IMG/VR virus record: IMGVR_UViG_3300021963_000040 | Location: 70,799-134,798 of that record | Reading direction: 5' to 3' (one strand) | DNA length: 64,000 nucleotides | Origin: a virus | Part shown: piece after piece, positions 3,033 through 17,257 of the stretch | How positions within the stretch are numbered: position 1 is the stretch's first letter | Layout: every line of letters begins with the position of its first letter | Notes under the pieces: model-generated | Databases searched by the model: none | What the model saw: the letters and a program-made list of their open reading frames with translations, nothing else | What the model was told of the DNA's origin: nothing | Position numbers and translations under genes: made by a program

Positions 3033-3376
3033 AGTTATTTGAGCTAAAAAGTAACTACGTTGACGAACTTAAATCCACAGCACTAAACATAGTATATACT
3101 GCTAGTGCTAGTGGTGCTACTAAAATGTCAATGCACGATATGATAGCCGACCTGAGTAAGGAAGGCTATTATGTCACTGCTAAAGATTTAATTGATGTTT
3201 TAGGCGGCACACCTAGTATCAAAAATATTAGCGCAAAAGAATTAGAATTAGATACTGGCATTAATCCTAATGCAGAAGAAGAATTAGGAATGCCAAATAC
3301 TGACAAAGCAGAAGCAGATGCACAAAAAGTATCTAATATGGCTTCTGATCAAGCACTAAAAAATATCACCAAATAA
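3029..3376 (+). CDS. Hypothetical protein
   Basis: ATGA overlap with the previous gene. Confidence 0.7.
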   Translation: MKLFELKSNYVDELKSTALNIVYTASASGATKMSMHDMIADLSKEGYYVTAKDLIDVLGGTPSIKNISAKELELDTGINPNAEEELGMPNTDKAEADAQKVSNMASDQALKNITK

Positions 3377-15379: not shown

Positions 15380-15408
15380 TTGACAACACCTGTAAATAAA
15401 TATATAAT
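15380..15408 (+). promoter_or_regulatory. sigma70 promoter
   Basis: TTGACA-17-TATAAT. Confidence 0.8.
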
Positions 15409-15429
15409 ACGAACACAAAGGAGACAGTC

Positions 15430-15537
15430 ATGCCTAGTCCACGTAGAGTAAGTCAAATCCTAAAAGGTAAAAAACCACCTAAGCCAAAAACTGTAAAGCA
15501 AATGGCCAAACGAGTTGTCCGTAGAAAGAGTAAATAA
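15430..15537 (+). CDS. 35 aa highly basic peptide (not in ORF track)
   Basis: AAGGAG SD; MPSPRRVSQILKGKKPPKPKTVKQMAKRVVRRKSK. Confidence 0.6.
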   Translation: MPSPRRVSQILKGKKPPKPKTVKQMAKRVVRRKSK

Positions 15538-15539
15538 TC

Positions 15540-15605
15540 ATGGCATACAGAGCAAAAACTAAAACTCAAGCCGCAGTTCGTAGACAACTACGTAAGCGTA
15601 AATAA
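15540..15605 (+). CDS. 21 aa highly basic peptide (not in ORF track)
   Basis: ATG 2 nt after the previous stop; MAYRAKTKTQAAVRRQLRKRK. Confidence 0.45.
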   Translation: MAYRAKTKTQAAVRRQLRKRK

Positions 15606-15609
15606 TAAG

Positions 15610-15674
15610 AACAGCGTAAACTGTTATTAAGAAAAGTGTTCTGGACGCCGGTTCGACTCCGGCCAGGTCCACCA
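15610..15674 (+). ncRNA. ssrA: Two-piece tmRNA, acceptor piece (5' end approximate)
   Basis: T-arm GCCGG-TTCGACT-CCGGC, CAGGTCC-A-CCA end; CTGTTATT and GTTCTG pair with the coding piece. Confidence 0.88.
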
Positions 15675-15685
15675 TAAGGGGAACT

Positions 15686-15865
15686 ATGAATACTGCTCTA
15701 GTTTGGGTTTTGTCGATTACTGTTTTAGGACCTGTTCCTGAACATAAAATATACGCCAAATATAAAACCAAACAAGAGTGTGAGCAAGCGTTAGAGCAAT
15801 CTAAAGCAGAGTACAAGTTGCAGAAAAAGAATGTGTCTGCAACTTGTACTGTAACAATGAAATAG
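15686..15865 (+). CDS. 59 aa ORF inside the tmRNA intervening segment
   Basis: AAGGGGA SD; MNTALVWVLSITVLGPVPEHKIYAKYKTKQECEQAL...SATCTVTMK-TAG. Confidence 0.6.
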   Translation: MNTALVWVLSITVLGPVPEHKIYAKYKTKQECEQALEQSKAEYKLQKKNVSATCTVTMK

Positions 15866-15877
15866 TATCCTTATGAT

Positions 15878-16060
15878 GGGCCTGCACTTGGTTTCGACAG
15901 GGCAAAGAGTAAGAATAATGGCGCTCGGGAATGTGAAACCCGTAGGATTGGGGTAACCCGGTCGAAGAAGCAAAAACGTAACTGCAAACGACGAACAGTT
16001 CGCATTAGCGGCCTAAACTCCGCTTAGGGTAGGAAATACCTCGTAACAGAAACAACCAAT
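15878..16060 (+). ncRNA. ssrA: Two-piece tmRNA, coding piece, tag ANDEQFALAA (15984-16016)
   Basis: 5' GGGCCTG pairs with CAGGTCC including G3:U70; GGTTTCGAC D-loop motif; resume codon GCA. Confidence 0.9.
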
Positions 16061-16084
16061 GCCCGCTTCGGCGGGCATTTTTTT
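16058..16084 (+). terminator. Intrinsic terminator after tmRNA
   Basis: AATGCCCGC-TTCG-GCGGGCATT + T-run. Confidence 0.9.
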
Positions 16085-16208
16085 GGTTAATTTGTTCAAA
16101 AAACTGTTATTTTTCAATGGTTACTATTGTATAAATGTGGTTACGTACTATATACTATGTATTCGGTGTAACAGCCGGTATACAAATCTTAATATTAAGG
16201 AAAAATAA

Positions 16209-16745
16209 ATGAAGAAACTTTTAGCAATTTTAGCTATGGCATTCGCCTCTTCTGCTTTTGCAGTTAACTACGTATCTGTTGATGTTGACAGCGTTAAGGG
16301 CCTAAATGGCGCTTCTGACAGCACCGCACAATACGTTCGTGCAGGAACAGAAATTGGTGGTATTCAATGGGGCTTACAAAGCCGTACTGCTCGCGTTGAA
16401 GGCGGCGGCCTATTGAACAGCCTAGAGGTAACTGGCGGTAAGGCAATTGGTGCGATCACTCCATTCGTTGGCGTTGGTCATGACAATGGCTTCAACGGTT
16501 CTACTCCATATAACTATGGTTTAGTTGGCGCAACTGCTGGTGCGAAAATGGGTCCTGGTTTTGCATTGGCTGGTGTTAAAGCTCGAGTTGGTTCTACAGA
16601 AACCAACATGACACATCAGACTGTTGTTTTTGGTACTTATTCTTTACCGATGACAAAAACAGTTAGTTTGAACTTTAACGCAAGCAAGTCCTACCGAGAC
16701 ATTAAAGAAAATGCTTTTGGTCTAGGTCTAGGTTTTAGCTTCTAA
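16209..16745 (+). CDS. Small outer-membrane beta-barrel protein
   Basis: Signal peptide (ASSAFA), alternating beta-strands, C-terminal GLGLGFSF BAM signal. Confidence 0.75.
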   Translation: MKKLLAILAMAFASSAFAVNYVSVDVDSVKGLNGASDSTAQYVRAGTEIGGIQWGLQSRTARVEGGGLLNSLEVTGGKAIGAITPFVGVGHDNGFNGSTPYNYGLVGATAGAKMGPGFALAGVKARVGSTETNMTHQTVVFGTYSLPMTKTVSLNFNASKSYRDIKENAFGLGLGFSF

Positions 16746-17181: not shown

Positions 17182-17257
17182 GCGTCTGTAGCTAAGTGGA
17201 ACAGCAGAAGCCTCTAAAACTTCAGAAGCGTGGGTTCGATTCCCACCAGACGCACCA
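17182..17257 (+). tRNA. tRNA with CUA anticodon (amber suppressor), Arg-like body
   Basis: Cloverleaf GCGTCTG/CAGACGC, anticodon arm GAAGC-CTCTAAA-ACTTC (C31-A39 mismatch), T-arm GTGGG-TTCGATT-CCCAC, encoded CCA. Confidence 0.82.

Follow-up and report, generated by a model that had tools for sequence, protein, structure and literature searches.

Can the intervening segment (IVS) of a two-piece transfer-messenger RNA (tmRNA) gene, which is lost from the mature molecule, house a protein gene, and if so, how would such a gene be expressed and come to lie there? The question is raised by a locus in a 64,000-nucleotide (nt) stretch of viral DNA, positions 70,799 to 134,798 of IMG/VR record IMGVR_UViG_3300021963_000040 (134.8 kb, CheckV completeness 38%); this whole stretch is referred to as the window, and coordinates count from its first letter. 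Within it, a 59-codon open reading frame (ORF), designated ORF59, nearly fills the 203-nt IVS between the acceptor piece and the coding piece of a permuted tmRNA gene, with its start 12 nt past the encoded CCA end and its TAG stop 12 nt before G1 of the coding piece (Table 1). ORF59 is a genuine protein gene under purifying selection, and the locus as a whole is probably best explained as a real protein gene housed in the IVS of a phage two-piece tmRNA gene.

Table 1. Features of the permuted tmRNA locus, in the order in which they begin along the window.
Feature	Position	Strand	Description or evidence
Sigma-70-type consensus promoter	15380-15408	+	TTGACA, 17-nt spacer, TATAAT; 12/12 hexamer matches
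Lys/Arg-rich micro-ORF, 35 amino acids	15430-15537	+	ORF list; between promoter and tmRNA
Lys/Arg-rich micro-ORF, 21 amino acids	15540-15605	+	ORF list; between promoter and tmRNA
tmRNA acceptor piece	15613-15674	+	T arm; acceptor 3' strand CAGGTCC 15664-15670; encoded ACCA 15671-15674
Closing helix, 5' strand	15673-15680 and 15683-15687	+	Covers CA of CCA, Shine-Dalgarno sequence, AU of AUG
IVS, 203 nt	15675-15877	+	Between CCA end and G1; lost in mature two-piece tmRNA by known family processing
Shine-Dalgarno core AAGGGG	15676-15681	+	2 nt after CCA, 4 nt before ATG
59-codon protein gene (ORF59), ATG to TAG	15686-15865	+	dN/dS, homologues, profile search, AlphaFold2 model
Closing helix, 3' strand	15862-15866 and 15868-15875	+	Covers TAG stop and CCTTATG; then AT, then G1
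tmRNA coding piece	15878-16056	+	Acceptor 5' strand GGGCCTG 15878-15884; tag frame 15984-16016
Intrinsic terminator	16058-16086	+	9-bp stem with 6 G-C pairs, then T run

The tmRNA gene around ORF59 is intact and conserved. Rfam places a permuted tmRNA at 15613-16016 (RF04321, 114.7 bits where the gathering score is 47, over model positions 1-213 of 213), a result reproduced by an own-genome search, and ARAGORN calls one at 15582-16107 with the tag ANDEQFALAA*. The tRNA-like domain is complete, with a T arm, a 7-bp acceptor stem containing G3:U70, a discriminator A and CCA, and the acceptor piece lies 5' of the coding piece; the IVS is delimited as in Table 1 because the acceptor 3' strand and ACCA end at 15674 and GGGCCTG starts at 15878. 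The tag frame ends in a hydrophobic ...LAA followed by a stop, and the tags of relatives are similar. Compensatory changes are found among relatives in both the T arm and the acceptor stem, including an A-U/U-A acceptor pair (RNAalifold). Additionally, the tmRNAs of relatives also score on the betaproteobacterial model RF01850, and they were found on viral contigs of up to 364 kb.

The frame of ORF59 is open at exactly 59 codons in six more full-length loci (L002, L003, L005, L006, L007 and L362), all with an IVS of identical length, and in five of these (L002, L003, L005, L006 and L007) the permuted tmRNA surrounding the ORF scored 105.6-140.7 bits. L002 came from the viral set and seven metagenome loci came from collection scans, of which L004 duplicates L002; in a 5'-cut locus, L009, the end of ORF59 continues into ...TATGAT and then into the coding piece. 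Between the window and five IVS loci, the ratio of nonsynonymous to synonymous substitution rates (dN/dS) was 0.12-0.30 in 15 of 15 pairs, with 24-60 differences per 177 nt that fall mainly at third positions. The Shine-Dalgarno (SD) sequence is likewise kept among relatives, as TAAGGAG, TAAGGGG, TAAGGAT or TAAGGAA, the first of these in 3 of 7 aligned relatives. A protein search returned eight clusters among eight candidates, namely its own and seven others, all of 59 amino acids (aa) and at 64-88% identity, and a profile search of 1.84 billion representatives recovered 24 proteins at E <= 0.001 (15 at E <= 1e-10), of which 23 are 44-71 aa long. Among cultured phages, neither blastn of 15400-16300 nor tblastn of ORF59 gave a match, and the acceptor piece gave nothing beyond T-arm-sized fragments, in 8 records. 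The 3' part of ORF59 also contains a perfect 15-bp inverted repeat (15810-15824 with 15836-15850, 11-nt loop); this hairpin was not taken as an element of its own, being only partly kept, with two pairs broken in 2 of 7 sequences and one compensatory change.

The encoded protein is predicted to be a soluble beta-beta-alpha-beta mini-protein. AlphaFold2, run on an 8-sequence alignment, gave a model with a predicted local distance difference test score of 86.7, with strands at residues 5-14, 19-26 and 49-58 and a helix at 29-45, in which the hydrophobic N-terminus forms the first beta strand and not a membrane helix or signal peptide. Sequence conservation is strong over this N-terminal segment, where W7, V8, L9, T12 and G15 are invariant, and in the wider family the W and both cysteines (C32 and C54) are invariant. 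No family for the protein was found in Pfam or PHROG, and Foldseek against the PDB gave no match to the model at E <= 0.001. PII-like SbtB, the best structural candidate (VIA-align Z 6.4), lay below the level reached by unrelated models, and no functional inference was drawn from it. The nearest Atlas cluster is viral, 59 aa long, with 213 members and a score of 0.89, and may be ORF59's own. A sequence-only reading of the locus had described a roughly 200-nt spacer almost filled by a 59-codon ORF with its own SD, a hydrophobic N-terminus and two Cys, all of which is borne out; the idea that the ORF might lack conservation and homologs is contradicted by the six further full-length IVS loci and the 24 family representatives. 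The suggestion that the product is a small exported protein is unsupported: the window protein starts MNT, without a charged n-region, its hydrophobic stretch is about 12-13 residues long, and this N-terminus is both conserved and modeled as a strand.

The two ends of the IVS are joined by a helix. RNAalifold of seven homologous loci gave 8 bp (15673-15680/15868-15875) plus 5 bp (15683-15687/15862-15866), stacked on the acceptor stem; the 5-bp part sets the AU of the AUG against the TAG stop, and all 13 pairs are intact in each of the seven sequences. The minimum free energy fold of 15613-15930 yields both the acceptor stem and this helix (z = -4.43; none of 100 shuffles was as stable). For a view across the family, permuted tmRNAs were detected in 124 of 237 loci, and 114 unique IVSs of at least 50 nt were examined (here and below, counts of IVSs refer to those among the matches listed). 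When C75-G, A76-U and IVS positions 1-11 were set against the mirror positions before the final TGAT, a mean of 0.90 was paired, as against 0.43-0.59 in five shifted registers, and many of the pairs are compensatory, most helix positions showing several canonical pair types (position 5, for example, is GC in 41, CG in 26, GU in 20, AU in 10 and UA in 10). The helix is present in non-coding IVSs as well; where the IVS is coding, an SD, (T/A)AAGGAG or close to it, forms the 5' strand. It is therefore the closing helix of the IVS across the phage tmRNA family and not a device of ORF59.

A sample of at least 120 viral loci was collected with a coding-piece motif that is blind to IVS content, and a permuted tmRNA was detectable in 87 of the loci, giving 82 unique IVSs. 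A filling ORF was defined as one with an ATG 6-25 nt after CCA, at least 20 open codons and an end within 15 nt of G1. Such an ORF occurs in 17 of the 82, compared with 1.58 +/- 1.18 in shuffled sequences (maximum 6 in 500) and 0 on the reverse strand. A second scan, also of at least about 120 loci and biased toward SD-like IVS starts, was then added, as were L362 and L370. This brought the tally to 44 IVSs with a filling ORF among 117 unique ones; the ORFs form at least 24 blastp clusters and encode 21-122 aa. ORF makes up at least 80% of the length in 23 of the 25 IVSs that are 130 nt or longer. In 24 IVSs the ORF ends on the TGA within the conserved TGAT, 1 nt before G1; in 20 it ends on a TAG or TAA 12-13 nt before G1. 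The resulting slot is defined by an SD directly after CCA, a start 9-15 nt past CCA, a stop 1 or 12-13 nt before G1 and paired IVS ends, and the window IVS has every one of these.

Selection is also evident in other cargo families that have diverged members, with dN/dS mostly below 0.4: 0.12-0.40 in a 49/50-aa family, 0.24 in a 52-aa pair, 0.06 in an 86-aa pair, and 0.01-0.79 in a 24-aa hydrophobic peptide, for which 20 of 21 pairs were computable and 11 of the 20 lie below 0.4. Two cargos have recognizable domains. The 86-aa Cys-rich cargo of L046 (2967-3224, - strand) matches PF03692 (CxxCxxCC) at 29.4 bits (cut-off 23), and the 73-aa cargo of L184 (329-547) matches PF14083 (PGDYG) at 27.8 bits (cut-off 27) and phrog_419 at 9.7e-12. 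A GNAT-like assignment for the 122-aa cargo of L370 was rejected, the only Pfam row being below its cut-off (HTH_45, 15.5 versus 25.5 bits). The 24-aa peptide family, MNDDL...VFALVLL, fills IVSs of 88-89 nt in L108, L164, L181, L185, L194 and L127, with the 3' strand of the closing helix doubling as its final codons and TGA stop.

Evidence on how the cargo changes comes from the sequences that surround it. The same IVS ends, TAAGGAAGTTT...GTTTCTTTATGAT, recur around unrelated cargos in L025, L056, L193, L130 and L370, which consequently have a C-terminal ...VSL in common. Flanks of 45+40 nt in the tmRNA are identical at 85 of 85 positions despite different cargo in L130 versus L194 and in L005 versus L237, and at 83 of 85 between L002, which carries ORF59, and L046 with its CxxCxxCC protein. 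Furthermore, in one metagenome, DNA contigs of relatives replace the window IVS at 15674->15862 and 15677->15860. Near-identical flanks around different cargo are the pattern that exchange by recombination within the conserved tmRNA halves would be expected to leave. Taken together, these comparisons support the view that related phages may use the IVS as a slot in which many small genes can be swapped. A coding-piece motif scan of bacterial genomes (at least 120 matches) was uninformative on bacterial IVSs; ARAGORN called a tmRNA in none of the matches listed, so these are taken to be chance matches.

These results also bear on what the sequence-only reading had proposed for the IVS. The complementarity of CATAAGG (15673-15679) and CCTTATG (15869-15875) is exact, and the stem is real and closes the IVS beside the acceptor stem; its supposed tie to this particular ORF did not hold, since it is family-wide and includes non-coding IVSs. 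The alternative of a safe-harbour cargo slot gained support from the clusters of unrelated ORFs that share an SD after CCA, a stop near the RNase P site and near-identical flanks, and the comparison of spacers in related phage tmRNAs, which had been suggested as a check, showed both the ORF kept at low dN/dS and different cargo between such flanks.

Members of the ORF59 family also occur outside the IVS. Among 22 loci with a family member, 14 of which are further viral loci, the gene lies inside the IVS in 8 (L362 being the one from the further viral loci), ends at or just before the tmRNA promoter in 6 (L364, L366, L367, L369, L370 and, from the metagenome set, L008), and has a tmRNA 0.76-1.3 kb downstream in 4 (L363, L371, L365 and L361). 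No tmRNA was found in L372 over 1.5 kb of downstream sequence, or in L373, L368 and L360 over less than 0.75 kb. L366 and L367 were placed by downstream sequence identical to that of L364, not by Rfam. The IVSs of L008 and L364 are short, 28 and about 25 nt, respectively. In L370, the family gene just upstream of the tmRNA promoter is accompanied by a 122-codon ORF in a 382-nt IVS (1776-2157). From these placements, the usual site of the ORF59 family is next to the phage tmRNA, on its upstream side; in one subfamily the gene occupies the IVS. In an unrooted protein tree of 59 columns, seven IVS copies group with L008 (support 85/92), and monophyly of the IVS copies alone, that is, one origin of the IVS position, was not rejected (p-AU 0.365); whether the gene moved into or out of the IVS was not read from this tree. 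Upstream of L008's free-standing copy, no trace of a former acceptor piece was found, the best local alignment score being 19 against a shuffle mean of 19.2. Given that the family's normal place is immediately upstream of tmRNA genes in phages, a role for ORF59 tied to the tmRNA or to translation is possible.

How could a gene in this position be expressed? We propose that one transcript, running from the promoter at 15380-15408 to the terminator at 16058-16086, would bear both tmRNA halves and ORF59, and that ribosomes would load on the SD of the nascent RNA within the approximately 190 nt before the 3' strand of the helix is made. After translation ends, the closing helix and acceptor stem would form, hiding the SD and AUG; RNase P would then cut before G1, the CCA end would be trimmed and the IVS discarded. 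A strong tmRNA promoter combined with a tolerant, discarded spacer would offer a safe place for small genes, and the conserved tmRNA halves could serve as homology arms through which such genes are exchanged between co-infecting phages. A 227-nt metatranscriptome contig matches 15524-15750 exactly, spanning a micro-ORF, the acceptor piece, CCA and 65 nt of ORF59. RNA run X5 has no contig over 15755-15929, which was not used as evidence; nor were the depth peaks of X5 and X23 at 15980-16029, which are the summed contigs of many organisms.

Several points weigh against the reading of a protein gene in an IVS that serves as a slot, or narrow it. The proportion of 44 of 117 overstates the frequency because the second scan selected SD-like IVS starts; the fair estimate is 17 of 82. 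Chance frames may account for some of the 24 clusters, for example L068 and L089, whose ORFs lack an SD and begin at nt 22. Within the ORF59 subfamily the closing helix shows no compensatory pair, its changes being wobble only, and its conservation there could be due in part to the SD, the stop codon and the RNase P leader. The RNA-library contig is compatible with the precursor, but carry-over of DNA is possible and contigs show no RNA ends. Lastly, expression would have to rely on a putative kinetic window, because initiation would be strongly inhibited once a 13-bp helix had formed over the SD.

Other explanations of the locus have to be weighed against these data. That ORF59 is not a gene, and that a long structured loop simply has a frame open by chance, draws on the stable folding of the region, and we regard its probability as next to negligible: 59 codons are kept despite the differences among relatives, dN/dS is low, homologues stand free outside any tmRNA and the hidden Markov model (HMM) family has 24 representatives, all of which contradicts it. 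It is also very improbable that ORF59 is an independent gene, with the tmRNA halves transcribed separately and ORF59 and the coding piece under a promoter of their own, so that the tmRNA gene would be split and ORF59 not nested. Phage-specific promoters would escape a scan restricted to sigma-70-type sites, but that scan found no promoter-like site on the + strand between the 15380-15408 promoter and the terminator, 15675-15877 included; the SD abuts CCA and leaves no space for a terminator, the RNA-library contig bridges the acceptor piece and ORF59, and a conserved helix that joins both IVS ends and stacks on the acceptor stem is sensible only in one RNA. A nearer competitor, already put forward in the sequence-only reading, supposes that ORF59 is translated mainly from the released IVS RNA of about 203 nt, so that tmRNA maturation makes the mRNA. 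The excised segment would be a compact message, with its SD 2 nt past CCA and its stop 12 nt (in other families 1 nt) before G1, and paired ends could shield it from exonucleases. The same pairing would keep the SD and the AU of the AUG locked in about 11 of the 13 pairs, and a working mRNA of this kind is less likely than translation of the nascent RNA because its SD would stay paired. Trailers of tRNAs are usually removed by 3'-to-5' trimming after the RNase P cut, and if the CCA end arises in this way the IVS would be destroyed, not released. We therefore consider translation from an excised spacer rather unlikely.

A different kind of proposal concerns function and is compatible with a protein gene housed in the IVS: the ORF59 protein would act on trans-translation or host ribosome rescue, and its placement would ensure co-expression with the tmRNA. 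The positions of the family in and beside tmRNA genes favour it, as does the finding of no smpB in the record (no match to PF01668 in the 134.8 kb, which are 38% complete; the host may supply SmpB). The loci, however, come from related phages, in which a shared gene order is perhaps inherited and not selected, the other cargo families are mutually unrelated, which argues for an opportunistic slot, and the protein matches no Pfam or PHROG family, nor any fold beyond background; on these grounds we judge a tmRNA-linked function to be quite unlikely. As an extension of the preferred reading of a gene in an IVS slot, we put forward tentatively a picture that we hold possible, though doubtful, in which the IVS would be an integrase-free cassette site, with the conserved tmRNA halves as portable homology arms, an SD and a stop supplied by the helix, translation limited by tRNA-type processing and the helix to a brief spell on each nascent pre-tmRNA, and a measured pulse of small protein with each tmRNA, the cargo here being a former upstream neighbour that acts on ribosome rescue.

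Circularly permuted tmRNA genes are reportedly the subject of the works of Keiler (2000) and of Sharkady and Williams (2004). The locus shares with bacterial permuted tmRNAs the order of acceptor piece, IVS and coding piece, a tRNA-like domain with G3:U70, an encoded CCA and a tag frame, and differs in that its 203-nt IVS encodes a selected protein with its own SD. Co-transcripts of tRNA and mRNA that are split by RNase P are known from the E. coli tRNA-tufB operon, the T4 tRNA cluster and the tRNA punctuation of mitochondria. There, as here, tRNA-like processing sites flank an mRNA on a single precursor, whereas in the present case the mRNA lies between the halves of one functional RNA and its ends pair to help form the acceptor stem. 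Long-range pairing limits translation to nascent RNA in the MS2 maturation gene, and 5'-3' pairing operates in hok mRNA. In our locus a distant complementary segment likewise sequesters the SD and start, suggesting a kinetic window; the difference is that the helix here is predicted from sequence and also serves folding of the tmRNA precursor.

Two-piece tmRNA genes have been described in Alphaproteobacteria, some Betaproteobacteria and Cyanobacteria (RF04321, RF01849-51; PMC11915505). As IVS contents that article mentions a tRNA-Ala and a repetitive element, and its main text uses "ORF" 0 times (PMC11915505). Some tmRNA genes have group I introns, and some of these introns carry homing-endonuclease genes (PMC11915505). 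Like ORF59, such a gene lies within a segment removed from the tmRNA precursor; in contrast, removal here would be by tRNA-type end processing and the cargo consists of diverse small proteins. A group I intron with a nested endonuclease gene was rejected for this locus, since Rfam shows only the tmRNA and two tRNAs in the window and no Pfam or endonuclease domain was found. Among phages, the OM43 phage Melnitz carries the gene for a two-piece tmRNA (PMC9004378), which resembles the present one as a permuted ssrA in an aquatic phage behind an early-type promoter; its text describes a glutamine riboswitch with this gene and uses "intervening" 0 times (PMC9004378), whereas here the IVS is the gene slot. 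Thus two-piece tmRNAs, their phage-borne counterparts and endonuclease genes carried by introns in tmRNA all have precedents (PMC11915505; PMC9004378), and the literature searches and article texts covered, including PMC11915505, PMC9004378 and PMC4131195, turned up no account of a protein gene in a tmRNA IVS.

Further features of the tmRNA and its transcription unit were observed. The relatives L003, L005 and L007 have the promoter directly before the tmRNA with no ORF between, and in L006 a different, hydrophobic 34-aa micro-ORF takes the place of the Lys/Arg-rich pair; because relatives have either no ORF or a different one there, the pre-tmRNA leader may be a second small-gene site. The tmRNA of L008 is a mosaic, like L005 in its promoter and 5' region and like L007 in its pseudoknot region, and the mosaic tmRNAs of L005, L007 and L008 therefore indicate frequent recombination inside the gene. 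Unusually long tags of 26-27 residues occur in some tmRNAs of this phage family, namely L007 (~3280-3360), L037, L100 and L068, for example ANEDAFDFAALSFTGNTVGGRVALAA. At 17182-17257, 1.1 kb downstream of the tmRNA, the window carries a tRNA with anticodon CUA, of the amber-suppressor type (Rfam tRNA, 61 bits), which ARAGORN labels tRNA-Pyl.

The IVS of two-piece tmRNA has so far been treated as a disposable linker. If it is indeed a routine, expressed and exchangeable slot, this would be a new way to nest protein genes within a gene for a stable RNA, and it would explain the length of these IVSs. For annotators, the locus gives reason to seek small genes that are now hidden under tmRNA calls. 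Its promoter, both RNA halves, helix, SD and stop lie within about 700 nt, and it would also offer a compact natural system in which translation is set against RNA folding and processing. Finally, the comparisons single out about two dozen small phage proteins, many of which are membrane peptides, as candidates for co-expression with tmRNA.

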